From the IMG/VR virus record IMGVR_UViG_3300008267_000006, positions 47,488 through 111,487 of that record: a DNA stretch of 64,000 nt. One strand, 5' to 3'. This document shows positions 5,386 to 31,034 of the stretch, in pieces; the first letter of the stretch is position 1, and every line of letters starts with the position of its first letter. The DNA is from a virus. The notes beneath the pieces are model-generated. The model saw only the letters and a program-made list of their open reading frames with translations, made no database searches and was not told the DNA's origin. A program made the translations under genes and the position numbers.

Positions 5386-7161
5386 TTAGCCTAGTAGATC
5401 TTGAATTACTACAAGACCATACATATCTGGGCGAACCATCGTCTTACCATAACGAGTCATTACAGCCTTACGTGGAACGAAGGTGTTAGGATCGAAAATG
5501 GTTGGGGTGCTTTGTAGTGGTACGTATGGGGCATATACGTAACCGCTTTCTAGGAAGCTACCACCTTTACGACCTACTAGGATTACGTTACGTAGGAAGT
5601 ATGGGTGAACAATGATATCCCATTTCTTGTTTAGATCACCAACACGAACAGCACCTACTGAACCTTTTTCATCGGTTGCAGTTACTGATGCGCGGAAACC
5701 GCTGGTGAATTCAAGAATGTTAGCAACTTCTGGACCACATACAAGGAAGTTAGCTCCACCGCGTAGAGTTTTACGATGGATTAGAGCTGAACAATCATTG
5801 ATGGTTTCAACTAGGGTTTCATACCACATTTGAACGTTACCAGTGAAATCTGGAGGAGCAGCATAACCACCTGATAGGGTTGAACCTAGATCAGCGCCAG
5901 TATCGCGGTTAACAAATTTACCTGGACGACGTGACCAGTATTTGACACCGGCAGTTGCGCCCTTGACTAGATCGTTCATGATTTCTTGATCAATTTCTAG
6001 ACCAATTTGTTCTGATAACATTGAAGTTAGTTCTACTTCAGCATCTAGATTGTGATAAGCATTTAGATCTTGACCTAGTTCTGGAGTCCATGAAGCTTTT
6101 AGCTTACGTGAACGAGCAGTGATTGAGTATGAATCGACTTTTAGTTCGATTTCTGGAATTGCTGAAGAACCTTCCATTGTCCATGGGGTTGCACCAACAA
6201 CAGCACCTAATGCGCTATCACCAACAGCAACAACATTGTCCTTGACTGGGTATGATAGTAATACGTGTGAAGCGGTTACAACTGCGGCTAGAGCAGCATC
6301 ACCCTTAGCAGCAACTACAACTTCTAGTGATTTCGCACCAGTTGAAGGATCAACAAATACTCTTGATAGACGACGAACTAGTTTAGCACTATTTGCTAGT
6401 GAAGAACCAGCAGCATCTTGTTCACCAGCGGCTACCGCACCAGCATTTTGTGCAAATGATACTGAGAATACGTCATTTTCAGCTAGTAGTTGGCTGTTTG
6501 CAATATTAGCAAATGGTACGCGTAGTACTGAAGCTGAAACGTAGTTTGAATCAGTTAGTAGATCTGCATCCCAACGTACTGCTTTTTTATCAGCATCAGA
6601 AGCGGTTGCTAGACCAAACTTGGCTACTTCAACAACGTTTGAAGCAGTGGTTGAAGAGTGATAGCGAGCGGTGTGATAACCGTTTGCCATGTTGTAGAAA
6701 CCTTTTTCAGCATTATCTACACCTTCGATACGAACACCGCCGGTGATTTGTACACCTAGACGATCACCGAAGAATGATTCACCTTTGTTGAATACCTTGT
6801 CACCAGTGTTACCGATATCGCTTCCACGGCGGAAATCCATGAAGAATACTAGACCTGATGGTAGGCTCATTGGTTGTACTGATACTAGATCGTTAGCGAT
6901 TAGACCAGCGAATACACGACGAACGATTGGGAACGCTACTGAGGCAAAGCCTTGTACGTCACCATTTGACATAGTGTTGGTTTCTTTTAGTAGTTCTTTT
7001 GCTTGATTCTCTAGTAGAATGGACATGGTGCTTTTTTGACGAGCATCCTTTAGACCTTCTAGTAGACCGCTCTTTTCCCATTTAGAAACTAGAGCAGCAG
7101 TTTCTTTGAGAGTATTACGTTCAACGATACCCTCGGTTAATTTTTCTAATACGTTACCCAT
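5386..7161 (-). CDS. Major capsid protein (T4 gp23-like)
   Basis: PIVRRVFAGLIANDLVSVQPMSLPSGLVFFMDF, SRKLKASWTPELGQDLNAYH.LDAE.EL, YAPYVPL and PRKAVMTRYG motifs; SD AGGAG. Confidence 0.98.
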   Translation of the reverse strand: MGNVLEKLTEGIVERNTLKETAALVSKWEKSGLLEGLKDARQKSTMSILLENQAKELLKETNTMSNGDVQGFASVAFPIVRRVFAGLIANDLVSVQPMSLPSGLVFFMDFRRGSDIGNTGDKVFNKGESFFGDRLGVQITGGVRIEGVDNAEKGFYNMANGYHTARYHSSTTASNVVEVAKFGLATASDADKKAVRWDADLLTDSNYVSASVLRVPFANIANSQLLAENDVFSVSFAQNAGAVAAGEQDAAGSSLANSAKLVRRLSRVFVDPSTGAKSLEVVVAAKGDAALAAVVTASHVLLSYPVKDNVVAVGDSALGAVVGATPWTMEGSSAIPEIELKVDSYSITARSRKLKASWTPELGQDLNAYHNLDAEVELTSMLSEQIGLEIDQEIMNDLVKGATAGVKYWSRRPGKFVNRDTGADLGSTLSGGYAAPPDFTGNVQMWYETLVETINDCSALIHRKTLRGGANFLVCGPEVANILEFTSGFRASVTATDEKGSVGAVRVGDLNKKWDIIVHPYFLRNVILVGRKGGSFLESGYVYAPYVPLQSTPTIFDPNTFVPRKAVMTRYGKTMVRPDMYGLVVIQDLLG

Positions 7162-7184: not shown

Positions 7185-8426
7185 TTATTTTATACCTGCT
7201 AAAATTTTCATACGTTCTGATTCATATGCATCTACCGATACATTTTTTGGTCTAGAGATAAAGCCAGAACTACCACGATTTAATGCTTCGCTTAGTGATT
7301 CTTTTGGTTTCTTATTAGAAATACCTTGCACTGCGCTTTGAAGAGTACCGTAAATTGTTTTTGCTTCTAGAACCGTTTTTGCATTGGAAATGTTTTCAAC
7401 AATATTTTCTTTTTGTCGCTCATTCAGGGAGTTATTTCCAAATACTTTATTAATATATAGTAATTTAGCGTTTGAAAGACTTAATTTTTCTGTATGTTCT
7501 TTAAGAGTTATTAAATTATCTTTTAATTCTTCTACGAGAACAGACATTCTTTTATTATCTTTTATTGATTCTTCTAGTTTACATTCTAGATCTTTTACTT
7601 TTTCTTCTTCCTCTTTACGTCTTTTTTCTTCTTCTTCATCTCTAGCAGCAGCAAATTCAACATTTCTATCAATTTCTTTTTCTGCGCTAGTTTGACCTTT
7701 CCAGCCTCTTAATTGGTGTTTTGGATTTAGGTCAACTTTTAGTTCTTCTTCTAGTTCGTTAATTTCTTCTTCAGATAATTCGAACTCTTCCTCTAAGCTA
7801 GCTGCATCATCTTTTAATTCAGATACAGCATCTGGAGAGACAGTTTCTTCTACTGGGTCTGTTGTTTCGTCTAGTTCAAATTCCATTTCTTCATCAAGCT
7901 CTTCTTGCTCTTCAGTTTCTTCTTGGGAGCAATCACTTTCTTCCATTTCCTCTTTTTCTTCAAAAAGTTCTTCATCAAGCTCTAGTTCTTCTGCGATTGG
8001 AGCAGCTGGAGCTAATTCTGGAGCGGCTTGTTGTTGTTCTGGGGATGAAAGGATAGGAGAACCACCAATTTCACTAGAAAGTTGCTTTTTTAATTTATCA
8101 AAGTCTATAGTTATTAATTCATCATCGTCACCATCAAGAAATGATGATGGTACATCTTCAAATGCCTCATCTTCTTCTGGCTGTTGTGTTTGAGCAGCTG
8201 CATCAGGTACTGGTGGTGCAGCTTGTGCATCTGGAACAGCAGCAGCGGCATCTTCTGGAGTTGTTTCTGGTGTATCTGATGATTGTGGTTCATCTTGCTC
8301 TAATAATTTTAGAGTTTGAGTAAACTCATCCTTATATTTCTCTATTAAGGCTGCTTCTGCGCTTTTTAGTGCTGTTTCTCTGAGTGCAGTTGCATCTGCA
8401 ATGGCTTCTTCTAGCAAATTTGACAT
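7185..8426 (-). CDS. Prohead core scaffold protein (gp22-like)
   Basis: Acidic, low-complexity and coiled-coil, with LSNAKLLY and a terminal RMKILAGIK; directly upstream of the capsid gene. Confidence 0.85.
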   Translation of the reverse strand: MSNLLEEAIADATALRETALKSAEAALIEKYKDEFTQTLKLLEQDEPQSSDTPETTPEDAAAAVPDAQAAPPVPDAAAQTQQPEEDEAFEDVPSSFLDGDDDELITIDFDKLKKQLSSEIGGSPILSSPEQQQAAPELAPAAPIAEELELDEELFEEKEEMEESDCSQEETEEQEELDEEMEFELDETTDPVEETVSPDAVSELKDDAASLEEEFELSEEEINELEEELKVDLNPKHQLRGWKGQTSAEKEIDRNVEFAAARDEEEEKRRKEEEEKVKDLECKLEESIKDNKRMSVLVEELKDNLITLKEHTEKLSLSNAKLLYINKVFGNNSLNERQKENIVENISNAKTVLEAKTIYGTLQSAVQGISNKKPKESLSEALNRGSSGFISRPKNVSVDAYESERMKILAGIK

Positions 8427-8465: not shown

Positions 8466-8475
8466 TATAAATAGT
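8466..8475 (-). promoter_or_regulatory. Putative late promoter ACTATTTATA upstream of scaffold-capsid operon
   Basis: Recurrent motif 40 nt before the ATG at 8426. Confidence 0.65.
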
Positions 8476-8506: not shown

Positions 8507-8809
8507 CTATTGACGATTATTTATATTTTTATTTATTGTTTTTTTCTTCTTTTTTGATTTTTCTTCTACTTCTGACATTAAATCTTTGTTATGTTTTTGA
8601 GCGTTTCTCTTATATCTCTCTCTTTTTTCACGCTCTTTGACACTTTTCTTCACAAATCTTCTATTCCAAGCACAATTATCATATAAATATTGAACTAAAG
8701 ACTCTTTGCTACAAGCTTTAATAAATTTCTTAATTAACTGATCTGTGCTTTCTTCAGTTGGTCTTACATGATCTGGAAGTTTTACTTCTAAATGTACTGC
8801 TCTACCCAT
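8507..8809 (-). CDS. rpsU: Phage-encoded ribosomal protein bS21 homologue (divergent)
   Basis: Manual alignment to bS21: LEVKL..EESTDQLIKKFIKACSKESLVQ...RRFVKKSVKEREKRER versus V.V...E..D.ALRRFKR.C.K.G......R..Y.KP...R. Basic tail. Location among head genes matches known phage bS21 genes. Confidence 0.75.
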   Translation of the reverse strand: MGRAVHLEVKLPDHVRPTEESTDQLIKKFIKACSKESLVQYLYDNCAWNRRFVKKSVKEREKRERYKRNAQKHNKDLMSEVEEKSKKKKKTINKNINNRQ

Positions 8810-8815
8810 ATTGTC

Positions 8816-9265
8816 CTATTCTTTCTTGCTATTTCCCATAGCACTGTTTAATAAATTCCAAGATTGTTTATTTACATTCATTAATCTGGATATATCCACA
8901 CCAGATCCTTGAATTCCTTCATAAATTTTATTTTTATCTGTTTCTTCGTGCATTTCTGCTGATTCTTGTTCTTCGGCAGTTAAATCAACACCAGAAAACG
9001 GATCAAATCCAGGCATACGAATTTCTTCTAAAAGTTTATTTTTTCTTTCTTGAATAGAAATTTGCGGAGTTGGCGTGTTTTTTTGAATAAATTGACGCTC
9101 TTTTAATTCATAATTTTGTTTTGCTGGAGATGTATCTCTAATTGGCGCGGTATTTTGTACGTTTTCCTGTACGATCCTCATCAAACCTTCTTCATATAGA
9201 ATTTCTTTTATACATTCTTTAATGATTGGTTTCATAACTTTTTTTAATTCTTGTACTTTTGACAT
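8816..9265 (-). CDS. Hypothetical protein with LKK..KPIIKECIKE.L.EE N-terminus (putative head-associated)
   Basis: 149-aa ORF with SD GAGG; late motif ACTATTTA at 9284-9291 upstream. Confidence 0.7.
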   Translation of the reverse strand: MSKVQELKKVMKPIIKECIKEILYEEGLMRIVQENVQNTAPIRDTSPAKQNYELKERQFIQKNTPTPQISIQERKNKLLEEIRMPGFDPFSGVDLTAEEQESAEMHEETDKNKIYEGIQGSGVDISRLMNVNKQSWNLLNSAMGNSKKE

Positions 9266-9311
9266 CTTAACCTCGTTTTGTTTTAAATAGTTTTATATTA
9301 TACAATATCCT

Positions 9312-9707
9312 TTAATATGCAGTAAAATAATAACCATATAAAGTTAATTCAAATACAAGATTTGTAGAATCAGTTGAAGCAGTTGTATTTTTCATATAGA
9401 TACTTGTACCGCGAGAAACAATAAGACTATCAGAACATTCATCTCTTCCATATCCATTTACTGTAGTTGGATATGTAATAGAAGCAATATTATTATACGT
9501 ATTAGCAACTGTTCCAAGTGTCATAATTAAACCGGTGGATATAGTGCCTGATATATGTTTTAATGTAGCATAATAAGGCATAAATGCTGATATTCCGGTA
9601 GACGGAGGTGTATAAAATATTTCTGATCTATTTAGAGTTGACATAGTGGTTACTATTCTTGAATAGCTAAATAAATTTTTATGAGTTAGACCTGCTAAAT
9701 AAGCCAT
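9312..9707 (-). CDS. Small beta-rich virion protein, paralogue 3 of 3
   Basis: Thr/Ser-rich, F.P motif and C-terminal L.LYGYY; stop/start overlap with the upstream gene. Confidence 0.65.
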   Translation of the reverse strand: MAYLAGLTHKNLFSYSRIVTTMSTLNRSEIFYTPPSTGISAFMPYYATLKHISGTISTGLIMTLGTVANTYNNIASITYPTTVNGYGRDECSDSLIVSRGTSIYMKNTTASTDSTNLVFELTLYGYYFTAY

Positions 9708-10144
9708 TATAAATCCTCAAAAAATCCATGAATAATAAACGAACCAGTAATTTTACTAGTTCCTATAGTAAATAGAGAAATTATTAAATCTGTATTATTT
9801 GGAAGAGCAGAATTAGTTATAAATGTAGTAAAATTTTCTATTATATTTGTTTTAACACCCGTACTACCATTTTGTGTTAAACTACCAGATGAAATATATG
9901 CATTTAGATTACCAGCATATCCTAGATGGAATCTTGGTGCAGTAGCTGCTGTACCATCAGCTGTATTATAATGAAAAGTTGTTTTTGTTGGTATAAAATT
10001 TCCAAAATCATCACTACCAGAAAATATAGTATAAGTTCCAGCAGTAGAATTATTAATAATCTGTGACTTTAAATAAGCAAGTCTTGGTGGCGCAAAAGAT
10101 GATGTTAGCGAGCCAGAAATAAAAATAGAATTATTATTATACAT
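9707..10144 (-). CDS. Small beta-rich virion protein, paralogue 2 of 3
   Basis: SDDFGNFIPT motif and C-terminal IIHGFF. Confidence 0.65.
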   Translation of the reverse strand: MYNNNSIFISGSLTSSFAPPRLAYLKSQIINNSTAGTYTIFSGSDDFGNFIPTKTTFHYNTADGTAATAPRFHLGYAGNLNAYISSGSLTQNGSTGVKTNIIENFTTFITNSALPNNTDLIISLFTIGTSKITGSFIIHGFFEDL

Positions 10145-10152
10145 TCATTGTC

Positions 10153-10602
10153 CTATACATATATTCCAAACATCCATGTTCTAACCGATACTGTGTTTGT
10201 AGTAGATCCTATAGAATAATCTAAACCAATAGATGCTCCAGCTGAAATACTTGATGTGCCAGCGGCTGTTATTAAAGTAGCCATAACATAAGAACCTGGC
10301 AAAATAGTAGTGCTGCTTATTACAACAGAAGAATTAGATATTGTTGAATCTACTGCTATGCTTGGAGTAGTAGTATATAATCCAACATTTGTTATATTTG
10401 CTGTTGCTGTAGTTGTTGCAGATAATAAACAATGAACTACTCTTGTTGGTATGAATCTTCCGCGATCACTTTTTAAATTAAATAAAAATATTGGATATAT
10501 TGAAGAAGCATTTGTTGTTTTTGTCCAATCAGCTACATAGCAATCAAATGTACTTTCTAATAAGGATAAATATTTTGCGCTTATTATGGATGAATTTATC
10601 AT
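10153..10602 (-). CDS. Small beta-rich virion protein, paralogue 1 of 3
   Basis: SDRGRFIPT motif and C-terminal WMFGIY; TAATG-coupled to the 1956-aa fibre gene. Confidence 0.65.
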   Translation of the reverse strand: MINSSIISAKYLSLLESTFDCYVADWTKTTNASSIYPIFLFNLKSDRGRFIPTRVVHCLLSATTTATANITNVGLYTTTPSIAVDSTISNSSVVISSTTILPGSYVMATLITAAGTSSISAGASIGLDYSIGSTTNTVSVRTWMFGIYV

Positions 10603-13600
10603 TAAAATACCAACCAGTTAGTTCCATCAGATATAAAATTATATGATGTATATTGAGTATAGATTGTTAAACCGGTAGCTTGACCATCAATTGTCGCAGC
10701 TGAAGATGTAACAAATAAAGAAGAAGTATGTAAATTTTTGATAACAAACGCGCTTCCTTGAATACCAGCTGCGTTAGGCAATGTTCCAGTCAACGAGCTA
10801 CCACTAAATGCTATAATATAATCAGTAGAAGCTGTTAAGTTATAATTAGAAGTTTTTGTTGATATTGCTAACTTAACTCCACCGCCAACTTGTAATCCAT
10901 CTGATGTAATTAGACTTCCAGAAACAACAACGCTTCCAGTGTATACTTCTAATATGTTGCTTCTTGCAGCATTTGAAGTTCCATTACCAACAAGCATAAG
11001 TGCTGTTGAGCTTGTCGCATTATATTTACCTTCAACATGTTGATAAGAAGCAGAAGCAATTGTCCATAAACCTTCTGCATGTGAATAATCACCAGAAGCT
11101 GTTACCCATTGACCTTCTGCGTGCGATCCAATACCAGATGCTAAAGTTCCACTGCCCTCCGAATGCGCATAAGCGCCAGAAGTTACTGTTGAAATTCCTT
11201 CTGCGTGTGATCCTCTGTTGTTTGCAACGTTGCTGTTTCCATGAACAAGTATATATGCTTCAAGTGCTTTATTAGCATTTCCTAATGCAACAGAAGAGTT
11301 TCCACCTTGCGCCATATTGTTAGAACCAACAATTAATGAATAGGTGCTGCTGATTGAATTACCGCCGGTTATCGAACCAATAACAACTCTACCATCAGCA
11401 AAAATAGCTTGTCCCGTTCCTCTTTGTGTTATTTTTAATGCTTGCGTAGAATTATTGACTTCTATACTTGATGTAGCAGAACCTGTAATATTTAAGGATC
11501 CACTGATGTTAACTGACGCGGAAATATTTTGATTAGATGTAAATGTATTTATTGCAGCTAATCTAGCGAATGAAGAGGTAACATCAGCAGATTTAGCATA
11601 ATCAGTTAAATCTACAGTACCAGCAGATGCTGTTATAATACCTGTGTTATAATCTATTGAAATATTTTGTCCTGCAATAAATTGATTTCTTGCGTCTGTC
11701 GTAAAATTATCTATATTTGAAGCAGTAATATTTGTTATGTTTGTTCCAATACCATTAAATGAACCAGTTACGCCACCACTAGAAGAAATATTAGAAGTAA
11801 CTGTTAAAGAGCCTGTTATTATTTGATTGGCAGTAAAAGAGTTTTCATTTGATAATTTTGCATAAGGTTGTAGCGCGCTAGTTATTGCTCCAGATACTTG
11901 AACTGGGGTCGAAAACGAAGAAGAAACTCCGTCTAATGTTGCATAATTAGATAATATTAATCCACTTCCATCTCCATAGAATCCACCAGAAGATGAAATA
12001 GCGGCGGATGACGTTAAACTACCAGAAACTTTTAATCCTGGAAATATTTCTATATAATCTGTTACAAGATCGATTGGCGCATTGCCTTTTCTATACACTA
12101 TATGAGCTACAGAGTTTTGTTCGCCAGTTGTAATATCAGTACTTCCACTTCCATATAATAACCCTGCTCCATCTAAGAGTTCATGAGTATTACTTCCACT
12201 CATTATGGTTATATACTTATCACCAACAATTAATGATTGTTGATTTAATGTATTCAATAAAGCTATACTAGCAGTACCATTTACGATTATATCATTGCTG
12301 AATATGTTAGTTTGAGCAGCAAATGTATTAGCAGATCCTAATCTTGCATACGATGCAGTCAAATCTGTTTTTAGCCCAAAAGAACTGGAAACATCAGAAG
12401 ACTTAGCATATGGGTTAAGAGCACCAGTTATAGCGCCAGATACTTCAGATCTAATTGGAAAATCATTTATCGCTGATGTTATTGCGCTTGAAACTTGTGT
12501 TGGGATAACAAATGATGCAGAAACACCAGCTAATGTTGCGTAAGTTGTATTTGCTGTTGAAATTTCTAAATATGGAGTTAAAGCACCAGTTATTGCACCC
12601 GATACTTCACTTCTATTTGGTAAATTATTGATAGAGCTATTTATTGCACCAGTTACGCTTGCAGTTGTTGCATAAATTAATAATCTTTCATCAATAGCGC
12701 CAGTAACTTCTGATCTGATTGGATATTGCACTAATGAATCATTTATAGCTCCAGTTACACTAGATGTTGTTGCGTAAGGAACAAGAGCGTCATTAATTGC
12801 TCCAGTTACTTCAGATCTAATTGGAAAAGCAACTTGAGAAGCAGTTATAGCACCAGAAACTTGCATTTCAGTTGTAAATGAAGCAGAAACACCAACTAAT
12901 GTAGCGTATGTAGACTGTGCATTAGTTATCGTTAAATATGGAGTTAGCGCTCCAGTTATTGCCCCAGATACTTCGGTTCTTACTGTATAATTTTCTAATG
13001 AAGCTGTTATGGCCCCAGAAACTTGAACCGGTGTTGTGAAAGATGCAGAAACATTATCTGATATTGCATACGAATATAAACTTGATGTTATCGCTCCAGA
13101 AATTTCACTTCTTACTGCATAATTTTCCAGTGAAGCGGTTATAGCCCCAGAAGTTTGAGTGTGGGTTGTAAACGATGAAGATAGATCGGTCTTTGTAACA
13201 TAATTAATTAATGAATCATTTATTGCACCAGTTACGCTAGATGTAAGAGCATACGGAATAAGTGATTCGCTAATAGCACCAGTAATTTCTGTTCTAAGCT
13301 GATTATTAGAAGACGTAATCGTTGCACTTATTTGAGTAGGTGTTGTATAGGTTGTTTGTGCGTTTGATATAGTTAGATAAGGAGTTAAAGCACCAGTTAT
13401 TGCTCCAGATACTTCAGATCTATTTGAAAAATCTCCAATAGCGGATGTTATTGCGCTAGAGACTTGGGTTGGAATAACGAACGAAGATGAAACTCCGTCT
13501 AAAGTTGCGTAAATTATTTGTGCATTATTTATAGTTAAATATGGTGTTAATGCACCCGTTATAGCACCGGATACCTCTAATCTATTTCCAAACGAAGAAG

Positions 13601-16472
13601 ATATTTCATCTCTTGTTGCAAAATTTATTATTGCAAAGTTTATCGCCCCAGTTACACTAGATGTTGTTGCATAAGGTACTAATGCATCGTTTATAGCTCC
13701 AGTTGTTTCTATTCTGGTTGGGAAATTACTAATTGCTGAGTTTATGGCTCCAGTAACGCTTGATGTTGTTGCATATGGAGATAAATCAATATTATAATAA
13801 GACGCAGTAAGAGCAAAACTTGAAGTTCCGGCAAAACTACTTACTGTGCTTGATGTGTATTCATTAAAACTTGAAGTTAATAAGTAATTTGTTTTTTCAA
13901 ATCCTTCTAGATTTGAAGAAGTAAGAGAATTCGTTGCAAAGCTTGAAGTAAGCGGATATCCATTAACCCATTTTGTTCCATTATATACTAATGCTTCACC
14001 TGGTTGTTGTGATTGTAAAAGAACGTCGGTTAGGCTACCTAAATTTGTAATTAATGGTGTGCCAGATGAACCTCCACCGGCTCCAGAAGCTCCTCTAAAT
14101 AAACCAGCTTGATAAATTCTAGCTATTGTATTATTTGTGAAGTTAGCAGCATTTCCTCTCATAACTGCATATCCAACTAATATGGCGCTGGTTGCAGTAT
14201 TAGCTCCTTCTGTAAATTTTTCTGTATTTATGCTTGCTATCGCATCATCTAAGCTTGCATATTTTGCTTGACCATAATATGCAAATAAAGCACCATTTAC
14301 AGCTCTTGGGAACCAATAAATTCTTTGAACTGTATATTCGCTATTACCTACAGAGGATAATACAGATCCGTTTTGATATTGAGTTGGATCAAGTGAAGTA
14401 TATCCAGCATTTAAAACTCCAGTATCTATTTTTGGAGTTGAGCCGCTCATATATTGACGGTAAATCTTAGATACAGTTACCGCTTGATCATTTTCAGATG
14501 TAATTATGTTAGGAATATTTGGATTATTTGAATAATTTCTTCCTTCAACATATGAATCGCCATTTGTTTTTGTAAGAGATAAACTGGTTGATCCGCTTGC
14601 TTCTAATACGTGACCACTAATTTTTAATGGACCAAATGCTCTTATAAAATCAAGAGTATTAGAGCCTATTCCATAAGCACTTGGTGAAGTATTAAAAGCG
14701 CCATTTGTAATAGAACCGCTTTGATGTAAAACTCTTCCTAAATAAATTCTATCTTTAAATTCAGTAAAAGAAGGAGGATTAGTTGATTGTATTATTCCAC
14801 CATTAGAGCCAATGGATACATATGTTATTTCATCCGTTAAAATGTGATCAAGAGATACACCAGTTGATGTAGGCCAAGAAACAAAATTAACAGTAGGATA
14901 AGGATCGGATGAAGTTGATGCATTAAAAGAAACAATTAATCCAGAACCAGATAAAACATTAAACGTAGTGCTTCCATTTGTTGTAGATAGGATACCACCA
15001 TGTAATAGTCCTGTATTAAGTAAACCTTCTAGCCACCTCAATCTAATTGTATTTGTATATGGACCCTGGTATTGAGTAAAATATACATCGTTTGTTGAAC
15101 CCGATGTATAAATATATGAAGCTGTTGTATTAGTCGGTATGCTTGTTACTGTTACTGGTAGTAACTGTAAGTACGTATTTATTGATGCTTTATCTGTTGC
15201 AAAGAATGTTGAAGCGGTTAAGTTTGTAAAATTTCCAGTCGTGCCGCTAATAGTTGTTGCGATAACTGATGATAAAGAAATGTTATCTTTTAATCCAATT
15301 GGATCAGATAATTTGCCGCTTCCGGTTATATTTCCATTTGTTGCAGCACCAGTTATATAATTTGTTAAAGCTCCAGTAATAGCTCCAGAAACTTGTTGAG
15401 GCACAACAAAGGTTCCAGAAACTCCGGTTAAAGTAGCAAAAGAAGAGGAGACATTATCAGATATTGCATATGGATGTAGAGCAGCTGTTATAGCACCAGA
15501 TACTTGAAAGCGATCTGCAAATGAAGCAGATAGATTTTCTATAGTTACAAAAGTTCCAGATACACCACTTAGTGTAGCATATGAAGCAGTGACGCCATTT
15601 AGTGTAGCAAAAGTGCCAGAAACTCCAGATAATGTTGCATATGTTGATTGTGCGTTTGTTATCAATAAATATGGAGTTAATGCTCCAGTTATTGCTCCAG
15701 ATACTTCGGTTCTTACTGTATAATTTTCTAATGATGAAGTTATCGCCCCAGATACTTCTACTCTCTCAGCAAAATTAATTGTTGATGAAGTTATTGCACC
15801 GGAAACTTGATTTGGTGTAGCAAAAGAGCTTGAGATATTATCTGAAATTGCATAAATTTGTAATGCACCAGTTATCGCACCACTTACTTCTGATCTACTT
15901 GAAAAATTAATTATAGAAGCAGTTATAGCACCAGAAACTTGAACTGGGGTTGTGAATGAACTTGAAACATTATCTGAAACAGCATAAATCTGCAAGCTTG
16001 AAGTTATTGCACCGGAAACTTCATTTCTCGTTGAAAAATCTTGTATTGAAGAAGTAATAGCACCAGAAACACTTGATGGAATAACAAAAGTACCAGATAC
16101 GCCTGTTAAAGTAGCATAATTAACTAAATTATTTACAGCTGATTCTGGAATATTATATAATCCAGCGCCATCTCCAACAAAAGATGCGGAAACACCAGAA
16201 GCACTTATATTTGTGGATACGCTTAATGTTCCATTTATTTGTGCAGCCGATGCAGTTAATTTTTGAATACTTATATCGTCTAATAATGTAACAGGATTTC
16301 CAGAAGTTCCGCTTCCGGTTATATTTCCTGATGTTTTTACTGTTATTGAACCACCAGCACCAACATCTCCAGCAATCCATGATTGTTTTGGTTCGGACCA
16401 AACAAGAGCTTGACCATCAGAACCAGTTACATAGGGTATACCATATACTGAAAATCCGTCATTAAAAGACAT
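10602..16472 (-). CDS. 1956-aa repeat-rich fibre/adhesin-like protein with YadA-head-type repeats
   Basis: Dozens of (E/Q)V(S/T)GAI(T/N) repeats in two blocks, four (S/A)HAEG/HSEG 14-residue repeats near the C-terminus, and a terminal TKTSNY...TLP...IKN...IDG...SDGTNW fibre domain. Confidence 0.85.
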   Translation of the reverse strand: MSFNDGFSVYGIPYVTGSDGQALVWSEPKQSWIAGDVGAGGSITVKTSGNITGSGTSGNPVTLLDDISIQKLTASAAQINGTLSVSTNISASGVSASFVGDGAGLYNIPESAVNNLVNYATLTGVSGTFVIPSSVSGAITSSIQDFSTRNEVSGAITSSLQIYAVSDNVSSSFTTPVQVSGAITASIINFSSRSEVSGAITGALQIYAISDNISSSFATPNQVSGAITSSTINFAERVEVSGAITSSLENYTVRTEVSGAITGALTPYLLITNAQSTYATLSGVSGTFATLNGVTASYATLSGVSGTFVTIENLSASFADRFQVSGAITAALHPYAISDNVSSSFATLTGVSGTFVVPQQVSGAITGALTNYITGAATNGNITGSGKLSDPIGLKDNISLSSVIATTISGTTGNFTNLTASTFFATDKASINTYLQLLPVTVTSIPTNTTASYIYTSGSTNDVYFTQYQGPYTNTIRLRWLEGLLNTGLLHGGILSTTNGSTTFNVLSGSGLIVSFNASTSSDPYPTVNFVSWPTSTGVSLDHILTDEITYVSIGSNGGIIQSTNPPSFTEFKDRIYLGRVLHQSGSITNGAFNTSPSAYGIGSNTLDFIRAFGPLKISGHVLEASGSTSLSLTKTNGDSYVEGRNYSNNPNIPNIITSENDQAVTVSKIYRQYMSGSTPKIDTGVLNAGYTSLDPTQYQNGSVLSSVGNSEYTVQRIYWFPRAVNGALFAYYGQAKYASLDDAIASINTEKFTEGANTATSAILVGYAVMRGNAANFTNNTIARIYQAGLFRGASGAGGGSSGTPLITNLGSLTDVLLQSQQPGEALVYNGTKWVNGYPLTSSFATNSLTSSNLEGFEKTNYLLTSSFNEYTSSTVSSFAGTSSFALTASYYNIDLSPYATTSSVTGAINSAISNFPTRIETTGAINDALVPYATTSSVTGAINFAIINFATRDEISSSFGNRLEVSGAITGALTPYLTINNAQIIYATLDGVSSSFVIPTQVSSAITSAIGDFSNRSEVSGAITGALTPYLTISNAQTTYTTPTQISATITSSNNQLRTEITGAISESLIPYALTSSVTGAINDSLINYVTKTDLSSSFTTHTQTSGAITASLENYAVRSEISGAITSSLYSYAISDNVSASFTTPVQVSGAITASLENYTVRTEVSGAITGALTPYLTITNAQSTYATLVGVSASFTTEMQVSGAITASQVAFPIRSEVTGAINDALVPYATTSSVTGAINDSLVQYPIRSEVTGAIDERLLIYATTASVTGAINSSINNLPNRSEVSGAITGALTPYLEISTANTTYATLAGVSASFVIPTQVSSAITSAINDFPIRSEVSGAITGALNPYAKSSDVSSSFGLKTDLTASYARLGSANTFAAQTNIFSNDIIVNGTASIALLNTLNQQSLIVGDKYITIMSGSNTHELLDGAGLLYGSGSTDITTGEQNSVAHIVYRKGNAPIDLVTDYIEIFPGLKVSGSLTSSAAISSSGGFYGDGSGLILSNYATLDGVSSSFSTPVQVSGAITSALQPYAKLSNENSFTANQIITGSLTVTSNISSSGGVTGSFNGIGTNITNITASNIDNFTTDARNQFIAGQNISIDYNTGIITASAGTVDLTDYAKSADVTSSFARLAAINTFTSNQNISASVNISGSLNITGSATSSIEVNNSTQALKITQRGTGQAIFADGRVVIGSITGGNSISSTYSLIVGSNNMAQGGNSSVALGNANKALEAYILVHGNSNVANNRGSHAEGISTVTSGAYAHSEGSGTLASGIGSHAEGQWVTASGDYSHAEGLWTIASASYQHVEGKYNATSSTALMLVGNGTSNAARSNILEVYTGSVVVSGSLITSDGLQVGGGVKLAISTKTSNYNLTASTDYIIAFSGSSLTGTLPNAAGIQGSAFVIKNLHTSSLFVTSSAATIDGQATGLTIYTQYTSYNFISDGTNWLVF
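12400..13780 (-). repeat. Degenerate coding repeat block 2 (VSGAIT/VTGAIN units) of the large fibre
   Basis: Repeated units such as RSEVSGAITGALTPY and YATTSSVTGAIN; boundaries approximate. Confidence 0.85.
15360..16120 (-). repeat. Degenerate coding repeat block 1 (VSGAIT units) of the large fibre
   Basis: Same unit family; shares the exact DNA stretch ccagatacttcggttcttactgtataattttctaatga with block 2. Boundaries approximate. Confidence 0.85.
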
Positions 16473-16890: not shown

Positions 16891-17496
16891 TTATTTTCTC
16901 ACTATGTCATTAAGCAAACGATTTAAACGATCTGCTTTTGTAAATATTTCTTCTTCTTTTCTTACTTTTCCTTCACTCATCATAAAAGCGCCAGGAGTAG
17001 AAGGTTCTTGTACGAAATCAAAACAAATAAGTTGAAAATCATCTTCAACAATTGTTTTACCACTTTCTTTTCTTGTTGAACCTAAACCACGGGAACTAAT
17101 ACCTAATTTAACTCCACCTTTAACAAGATTTTTTAATATATTGCCAGATGGCGTATCAAGAACTTTTACCTTGCCCATTACGTTATTGCCGTCCCACCAC
17201 ATTTTTGTAACCATGTGTGAAACATTTTTTAAATTAATAACAGAATCGTCTGGATGATCTAATTCTCCTAACGCTCTACTATCTTGAATAATTTTTTGAT
17301 AATTTTCAACTTCTCTATCTAAAATTTTTCTAGAATAAACACGACCGTTACCATTTTCTTGATCACATTTTTGCATTATGCCGGTTAACATTAAACCGCC
17401 GCCTCTAACAAAAACTTTTTCTTCTTCTGTCAAAAGATCTTGACAGACTCCACCTTCACAAAGTGAATAATATTCTCTAAGAAGCTGTTTGCTCAT
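16891..17496 (-). CDS. Prohead core protease (T4 gp21-like)
   Basis: NGNGRVY, ALGELDHP, VSH, LDTPSG, LGISSRGLGS and DFVQEPSTPGA motifs. Confidence 0.97.
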   Translation of the reverse strand: MSKQLLREYYSLCEGGVCQDLLTEEEKVFVRGGGLMLTGIMQKCDQENGNGRVYSRKILDREVENYQKIIQDSRALGELDHPDDSVINLKNVSHMVTKMWWDGNNVMGKVKVLDTPSGNILKNLVKGGVKLGISSRGLGSTRKESGKTIVEDDFQLICFDFVQEPSTPGAFMMSEGKVRKEEEIFTKADRLNRLLNDIVRK

Positions 17497-17750
17497 TATT
17501 GTACCTGAACTCCAAAAGTTTTTAGGTATGCAACAATTTTAGCATGAGATTGCGGATTCATGGATTTAATCGCAGCTAACGCTTGTGCTAGTTCTGGTGG
17601 AGGTGGTGTTGCTGGCTTTGCTGGCTGCGCTGGAGCTGCTGCTGGCGCTGCGGGTGCTGGCGTTCCGGCTGGTGCTGGTGCTGCGGGAGCAGTTGCTTCA
17701 AGCAAATGCTTTCTTACTAATTTTTTTAATATATTTTTAGAAATTTCCAT
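17496..17750 (-). CDS. Pro/Ala-rich hypothetical protein, putative internal head protein
   Basis: N-terminal MEISKNILKKLVRKHLLE followed by a PAAPA linker; SD AGGA. Confidence 0.65.
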   Translation of the reverse strand: MEISKNILKKLVRKHLLEATAPAAPAPAGTPAPAAPAAAPAQPAKPATPPPPELAQALAAIKSMNPQSHAKIVAYLKTFGVQVQ

Positions 17751-17775: not shown

Positions 17776-17811
17776 TATAGCCCTGTAGATTTTTTTCTCT
17801 ACAGGGCTATA
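17776..17811. other. Perfect 14-bp stem-loop directly after the CC-peptide stop codon (terminator or mRNA stabiliser)
   Basis: TATAGCCCTGTAGA-N8-TCTACAGGGCTATA; the minus-strand U-tract is weak. Confidence 0.7.
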
Positions 17812-17812
17812 G

Positions 17813-17887
17813 TTAATTACCAGAACAACAATGACGTACTGGTCTTACCATGCGACGAACATAAGTAATATCTTGTTTTTCACGCAT
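17813..17887 (-). CDS. Unannotated 24-aa peptide MREKQDITYVRRMVRPVRHCCSGN
   Basis: Preceded by ACTATTTATA (17911-17920) and SD GGAGGTGA; followed immediately by a 14-bp hairpin. Confidence 0.65.
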   Translation of the reverse strand: MREKQDITYVRRMVRPVRHCCSGN

Positions 17888-17910
17888 CGATAATCATCAC
17901 CTCCATTCAG

Positions 17911-17920
17911 TATAAATAGT
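17911..17920 (-). promoter_or_regulatory. Putative late promoter ACTATTTATA upstream of the 24-aa peptide
   Basis: Exact copy of the recurrent motif. Confidence 0.65.
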
Positions 17921-30974: not shown

Positions 30975-31003
30975 AAAAAATCCCGCTATGGTTAGCAGCG
31001 GGA
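30975..31003 (-). terminator. Intrinsic terminator immediately 5' of the SbcCD ribosome-binding site
   Basis: Minus strand TCCCGCT-N9-AGCGGGA-TTTTTT. Confidence 0.7.
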
Positions 31004-31005
31004 CC

Positions 31006-31034
31006 AGTATACACTACCCTTGGTAGGATTTCAA
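31006..31034 (-). promoter_or_regulatory. Sigma70-type promoter TTGAAA-N17-TATACT for sbcDC
   Basis: 5/6 match at both -35 (31034-31029) and -10 (31011-31006) with 17-nt spacing. Confidence 0.7.

Follow-up and report, generated by a model that had tools for sequence, protein, structure and literature searches.

A diverged bS21-like protein encoded beside the scaffold and capsid genes of a T4-like phage lineage

This study focused on S21L, the name given here to a small open reading frame in the head gene cluster of a T4-like phage. On the evidence of sensitive sequence methods, the only ones through which the homology holds, it represents a phage-only subfamily of ribosomal protein bS21 that has diverged strongly. 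Of all ribosomal proteins encoded by viruses, phage bS21 is the commonest. The best explanation of the observations, and one in which we place moderate confidence, is that S21L is a strongly diverged bS21 that descended in place and acts on the host 30S subunit in late infection. The DNA analysed (the window) covers 64 kb at the right-hand end of an IMG/VR virus contig of 111,487 bp with a CheckV completeness of 59%, and the genome of this T4-like phage is estimated at about 190 kb, complete relatives being 187 kb.

The S21L gene and its locus

S21L is a real gene and more than a chance reading frame, as its related protein clusters, its dN/dS values and its fixed position all attest. A word-indexed search returned 59 S21L-related protein clusters and a profile search at least 196 (E ≤ 0.01; clusters at 90% identity), and in an exhaustive phmmer search of 1.8 billion representatives the relatives fell into 8 clusters at 50% identity. 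The gene is under purifying selection, with a median pairwise dN/dS of 0.26 over unsaturated pairs and values of 0.08–0.3 for the closest pairs. In all 23 of the related IMG/VR contigs that were collected with S21L as the seed, it lies directly before the scaffold and capsid genes and on the same strand. The family was absent from the 185,579 prokaryote species genomes searched, and so provides no prophage or host clue, and tblastn of S21L and two relatives against 50,697 phage records gave no match.

The minus strand carries nearly every gene of the window. The upstream border of the head block containing S21L is formed by the head maturation protease gene, and the order of transcription is protease, a 132-aa ORF, a 1956-aa fibre-like protein, three small ORFs, the 149-aa protein p149, S21L, scaffold and capsid (Table 1). 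The first-pass annotation of this DNA had described the ORF as lying just upstream of the scaffold and capsid genes, and the two do adjoin it in that arrangement on the same strand. No Pfam or PHROG family was matched by p149. Between the protease block and p149, positions 9312–16472 (minus strand) hold the repeat-rich 1956-aa fibre-like protein and the three small Ser/Thr-rich ORFs (131, 145 and 149 aa). In the 23 related contigs the three small ORFs have no match and the fibre-like protein has partial matches only; this part of the head operon is a variable insertion hot spot.

Table 1. Features of the head gene block discussed in the text (positions within the window).
Feature	Position	Strand	Remarks
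Major capsid protein, Gp23 family	5386–7161	minus	PF07068 E 5e-70, phrog_138
Scaffold gene, gp22-like, acidic	7185–8426	minus	pI 4.2, AGGAG SD
ACTATTTAT motif	8467–8475	minus	in the 80 nt that separate S21L from the scaffold gene
S21L	8507–8809	minus	100 aa, ATG start, pI 10.0, 28 K+R
p149 (149-aa protein)	8816–9265	minus	conserved, phage-only, mostly disordered; TAG stop 6 nt before the S21L ATG
ACTATTTAA, one-mismatch variant of the repeated late-type motif	9284–9292	minus	19 nt upstream of the p149 start
Head maturation protease, gp21-like	16891–17496	minus	phrog_207 E 1e-60; synteny

Relationship to bS21 and the genes in the same slot

Standard annotation does not recognise S21L. The ORF had been labelled bS21-like, with a search by the Ribosomal_S21 HMM put forward as a check, and this profile (PF01165) is not matched by S21L at E ≤ 1; the label was borne out by profile–profile and bridging evidence, not by any standard profile. 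Neither S21L nor the relatives scored reach the Pfam gathering threshold of PF01165 (27 bits), the best member, P0067, attaining 23.1 bits, and a six-frame PF01165 search of the whole contig was empty. Scans of S21L against NCBIfam and PHROGs found nothing related to S21, no precomputed Pfam domains were present among the best 120 of the 196 relatives, and PDB sequence searches with S21L and both family profiles gave no S21 chain.

Among the relatives, PF01165 was the family matched most often, if weakly (5 of 40, best E 0.011), and for the two most distant representatives it was the sole Pfam match (E 0.0098 and 6e-5). The distant member P0067, which matches S21L at E 9e-4 in a search of 1.8 billion proteins, itself matches PF01165 at E 6e-5, has bS21 chains as all of its top seven PDB matches, and carries the JGI name S21. 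When the family was compared by hhalign with a set of 31 S21 sequences (30 from Pseudomonadota genomes and that of phage HTVC008M), the two aligned at E 2.3e-4 (residues 8–77 with 3–64 of 71), and the core family aligned with the S21 genes found in the head slot at E 2.2e-5 (probability 76%, 65 columns, 1–76 with 6–70). With an HMM made from the 31 sequences, 31 of the 127 family proteins scored at least 8 bits (maximum 21.1), a level reached by none of 1270 shuffled copies and by no reversed copy. In the ESM Atlas, the ten nearest family-bearing clusters were all viral PF01165 clusters (score 0.88, 196/256 shared features), and a model search gave TM values of 0.50/0.61 for S21L and a viral S21 cluster.

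Two AlphaFold models of S21L (pLDDT 78 and 74) predict an extended N-terminus and helices at residues 19–32, 35–44 and 55–99, with a short extra helix in an insertion, which fits the plan of bS21, a strongly basic protein of small size in which three helices follow an extended N-terminus. Fold searches with both models (Foldseek against PDB and BFVD, and VIA-align wide) returned no S21 chain and only generic long-helix matches, an uninformative outcome that is to be expected of a protein with an extended, helical shape when not bound to the ribosome. A weak, repeated resemblance of residues 22–68 to Gloeobacter phycobilisome linker repeats (PDB 9k9w chains, E 0.0018) disappeared when family profiles were used, and is probably due to chance.

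These failures to match PF01165, NCBIfam and the S21 chains of the PDB, whether by S21L or by its profile, together with the generic fold matches, would suit the view that S21L is not an S21 relative but a basic phage protein, small and helical, that resembles S21 through its composition. We give this view hardly any weight: no shuffled or reversed control scores as high as the real proteins, each of three independent comparisons yields an alignment that runs collinearly along the whole of S21, and there are bridging sequences that score with both HMMs and occupy the same genomic slot.

At the residue level, the three peculiarities pointed out in the first-pass annotation are all present, namely the extra YDNCAWN segment (a 4-residue extra segment, in the YDNC/AW region, relative to canonical S21), KKS in place of KP(S/T), and the Lys/Asn-rich tail. 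Compared to canonical S21, S21L has two insertions, one of 5 residues within the N-terminal loop and one of 4 residues before RRF. At the first S21 core motif, the (L/I)(K/R)(K/R)F helix and the Cys or Lys position behind it, its LIKKFIKAC aligns with ALRRFKRSC of E. coli, and the second S21 motif, (F/Y)xKP(S/T), reads RRFVKKS, with the proline lost; KPS is kept in about half of the relatives, the rest having KKS, KAS, KTS or KRS. The columns that are invariant in the family include core positions of canonical S21 (I26, F29, K31, C33, K35, K54 and K67-R68-x-A70). The Lys-rich tail following KKS has 44 residues and a net charge of +10; the family averages are 50 residues and +10.1, and those of Pseudomonadota S21 are 30.5 residues and +9.8.

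The slot between the protease and the scaffold and capsid genes also holds canonical S21 genes. Microcystis phage Mel-JY01 has its RpsU there (PF01165, 45 bits), and in the 484-kb phage LR756508 a PF01165 gene (40 bits) is found 2 kb upstream of the capsid gene on the same strand. Among 80 contigs collected by capsid protein (53–74% identity), an S21-type gene follows the p149 homologue in nine out of nine loci where p149 was seen (L144–L147, L149, L160, L168, L201 and L203). It is canonical in L201 and L203 (44–47 bits with the S21 HMM), and a bridging form that scores with both HMMs in L160 and L168, and the series ends in members of the diverged family. The aligned head-slot S21 genes have in common the N-terminal motif SKRPVN(V/L)E. 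A p149 homologue also directly precedes S21L in 20 of the 23 S21L-seeded contigs; in the other three it was either not reached by the contig or missed by the search, and no contig lacks p149 where the region is covered. The S21 start usually lies within a few bases of the p149 stop, in lineages with canonical and with diverged S21 alike. Two relatives with complete or near-complete genomes (187 kb, IMGVR_UViG_3300008267_000004, and 174 kb) contained no other S21.

In two other phages the slot between protease and scaffold is filled by small genes that were considered as possible S21 and found to be unrelated, an acidic 75-aa protein in Flavobacterium phage immuto (L025:6340–6567) and a 116-aa Ala/Lys-rich protein in HTVC008M (L026:6683–7033).

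The constancy of the pairing with p149 invites another reading, in which S21L is an exapted S21 derivative that has left the ribosome and, by means of its long Lys-rich tail, either joins p149 in assembling the head or is packaged as a nucleic-acid-binding protein. It would agree with a protein that is beyond Pfam detection, has two insertions and has lost the KPS proline, with the tight, obligate pairing to a disordered head-cluster protein (9/9 capsid-seeded and 20/23 S21L-seeded loci), and with a family tail averaging 50 residues and a charge of +10. Because the KPS proline is replaced and the two insertions lie near rRNA-facing parts, 30S binding could indeed have been lost. We consider exaptation unlikely, if the likeliest of the alternatives. 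Canonical, Pfam-positive S21 genes follow p149 in this slot too, so that the position says nothing about a function in the head; the invariant columns of the family include canonical S21 core positions; and the N-terminus has no conserved protease site of the T4 type, (L/I)xE. The conserved N-terminal LE was examined as a site of this type and rejected, since its P3 residue is neither L nor I.

Slightly further down the scale of likelihood is that S21L and the coupled p149 make up a two-protein module that goes beyond a plain substitute for a ribosomal protein, either as a head-assembly or DNA-packaged protein or as a platform-binding pair. If the last were true, such a pair would offer the late messages of the phage exclusive access to the 30S subunit where the host bS21 differs or is missing.

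The explanation we prefer keeps S21L on the ribosome. S21L would descend in place from a canonical S21 that a wide T4-like lineage has kept between the prohead protease and the scaffold and capsid genes. Its most likely function, which we infer with about the same moderate confidence as the explanation as a whole, would be incorporation into host 30S subunits late in infection. There it may bind the platform, replacing or adding to the host bS21, and once bound might tune translation initiation during the mass production of virion proteins; both ribosome binding and any effect on translation are put forward on this reasoning. The one precedent for entry into ribosomes is the bS21 of HTVC008M, which enters E. 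coli 70S ribosomes (PMC6375957).

Expression and Shine-Dalgarno use

The motif ACTAWTTAT occurs 10 times in the window against 4.8 expected, always on the minus (coding) strand (2719, 4561, 8467, 17912, 26780, 36868, 45854, 48128, 54043 and 56191), a number reached in none of 100 shuffles, and it is a candidate for the core of a late promoter. The copy ACTATTTAT in the gap behind S21L is a candidate late promoter for scaffold and capsid, and the variant ACTATTTAA ahead of p149 is a candidate promoter that would serve the p149–S21L pair. The Shine-Dalgarno (SD) site of S21L itself is weak (−3.9 kcal/mol), and the mean in 22 relatives is −2.9 compared to −4.7 for genes of the clade. The 6-nt gap to p149 and the weak SD together suggest that translation of S21L is coupled to that of p149, as is probably the case. 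S21L is also probably transcribed with the head genes and would be expressed late. In published examples, phage bS21 is transcribed together with late structural genes (PMC9723584).

Two other places in the window have unusual signals. The first is at 17810–17920 (minus strand), where a ACTATTTAT motif comes ahead of a 24-codon ORF that has a very strong SD (GGAGGTGA) and a pair of neighbouring Cys codons close to its end. The ORF gives way to a perfect 13-bp hairpin whose loop is A-rich, and the 84-aa gene at 17496–17750 lies just beyond it. The 24-codon ORF, near 17885, could be a micro-gene or a leader peptide. The sigma70-type promoter reported in the first-pass annotation is present as TTGAAA-N17-TATACT at about 31034–31006 on the minus strand, and in the interval 30975–31034 a GC-rich hairpin that has a T-run comes immediately after it, ahead of the SD and start of a 1043-aa gene. 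This places a promoter-like site directly before a terminator-like hairpin.

SD use was measured as the presence of a 4-nt SD core at −22 to −4, with one simple gene caller for all genomes. The strong motifs that had drawn attention to this phage are real, with AGGAG before the genes starting at 2676, 7161, 8426 and 56110, and GGAGGTGA before the 24-codon ORF. From them it had been proposed either that S21L enters host ribosomes and favours SD-led late phage messages, or that this is a bS21 phage of a different, SD-using host. The first of these, stated fully, has S21L swapping into the ribosomes of a host with few SD sites, of the Bacteroidota type, and freeing or favouring the anti-SD, so that late mRNAs led by an SD are preferred. 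The strong SD motifs before the capsid, scaffold and several tail genes would fit such a selector, as would the finding that bS21 governs access to the anti-SD in Flavobacterium (PMC7797042).

The distribution of SD cores makes this very improbable. In the replication and nucleotide half of the contig they precede 55% of 62 genes, and in the structural half 54% of 54, the value at an internal control position in the same contig being 11–13%; 5-nt cores, at 34% and 20% respectively, are if anything more frequent in the replication and nucleotide half. With no bias of late over early genes, the premise of an S21L that promotes SD-led late mRNAs is lost. Nine related contigs have SD cores before 59% of genes, the related contigs ranging over 59–69%, and across the wider capsid lineage the figure is 45–69% irrespective of S21 type. 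Pelagibacter phage HTVC008M reaches 52%, Microcystis phage Mel-JY01 38% and LR756508 15%, whereas Flavobacterium phage immuto, whose GC content matches that of the contig and which is its closest cultured relative by coverage of the capsid, has only 6%, below its own internal control of 17%. SD use is a genome-wide and lineage-wide property, neither marking late genes nor tracking the divergence of S21. The Tyr at KPS+14 and the weakly basic C-terminus of the Bacteroidetes protein are, moreover, both absent from S21L.

The second proposal, a bS21 phage of an SD-using host, is favoured, given a genome and lineage rich in SD sites compared to the 6% of immuto. Judged by these sequence statistics, the host would be an SD-using bacterium and is probably not a member of the Bacteroidota. 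The accompanying view that phages with a late bS21 belong mainly to Bacteroidota was too narrow, as the published bS21 phages with head-gene neighbours have hosts in the Proteobacteria, Bacteroidetes and Firmicutes (Chen et al. 2022, PMC9723584). Neither psbA nor NblA was present in the contig, in three relatives or in Mel-JY01, which is uninformative about the host.

Significance and comparison with known systems

That phage bS21 genes can lie beside protease and capsid genes, and that their hosts extend beyond the Bacteroidota, is already known (PMC9723584, PMC6375957). What is new here is the series of S21 genes in one slot, from canonical to diverged, the constant p149 partner, and a controlled demonstration of genome-wide SD use. 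At least 196 clusters of phage S21 (at 90% identity) are invisible to standard annotation, so surveys will undercount them. The drift from canonical to barely recognisable forms within a fixed slot offers a natural series for asking which features of S21 a phage needs. Since head-cluster bS21 genes are also found in lineages with heavy use of SD sites, sequestration of the anti-SD as in Bacteroidota cannot serve as a general explanation.

The phage bS21 proteins described by Chen et al. 2022 (PMC9723584) are likewise small bS21 homologues, encoded no more than a few genes away from the prohead protease and the major capsid protein, and their proposed role is likewise a late-stage takeover of the ribosome. 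The phages of their clades a–e come from fresh water, as the S21L phage probably does too, and both are low in GC (31–34%). Those clades, however, have genomes of about 290–330 kb, compared to about 190 kb for the S21L phage (complete relatives, 187 kb and 174 kb), and their bS21 gene is opposite in strand to the flanking structural genes, whereas S21L shares the strand of its neighbours in all 23 loci. S21L also differs from them in being probably coupled to p149, falling below the Pfam cut-off, having two insertions and residing in an SD-rich genome.

The cultured phage Mel-JY01 (PP395634.1; RpsU, WWT39311.1) shows the same slot order, with protease, small protein, S21, scaffold region and Gp23-type capsid gene, all on the same strand, in a genome of similar size (190 kb), and its capsid protein is 46% identical (tblastn against phage records). 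Its S21 is canonical, with 75 aa, a score of 45 bits, KPS kept, and a tail of 20 residues with a charge of +3, and has no significant direct pairwise similarity to S21L. No literature on Mel-JY01 was found. HTVC008M (Mizuno et al. 2019, PMC6375957) is also T4-like and has an SD-using host (52% SD cores). Its bS21 is canonical (65.7 bits) and closest to the S21 of its host and, unlike S21L, is encoded outside the head cluster, about 16 kb from the capsid gene.

The bS21 of Bacteroidetes (PDB 7JIL chain z) belongs to the same protein family and occupies the same ribosome site, on the platform at the 3′ end of 16S rRNA, that is considered here for S21L. In F. johnsoniae, Tyr54 of bS21 stacks on A1534, the C-terminus is weakly basic, and the anti-SD is sequestered (Jha et al. 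2021, PMC7797042). In 7jil_z and 9i5v, KPS occupies positions 40–42 and Y54 comes 14 residues after its K (the F. johnsoniae sequence was taken from the PDB target lines of the alignment). S21L has K54 and then a Tyr66, near-invariant in the family, at +12, or at +13 with the hhalign gap, compared to +14 for the Bacteroidetes Tyr; an equivalence of Tyr66 and Tyr54 was rejected, the two being in different columns. The C-terminus of S21L is strongly basic (+10), in contrast to the weakly basic Bacteroidetes type, and in this respect its tail is like that of S21 from SD-using phyla, or goes beyond it.
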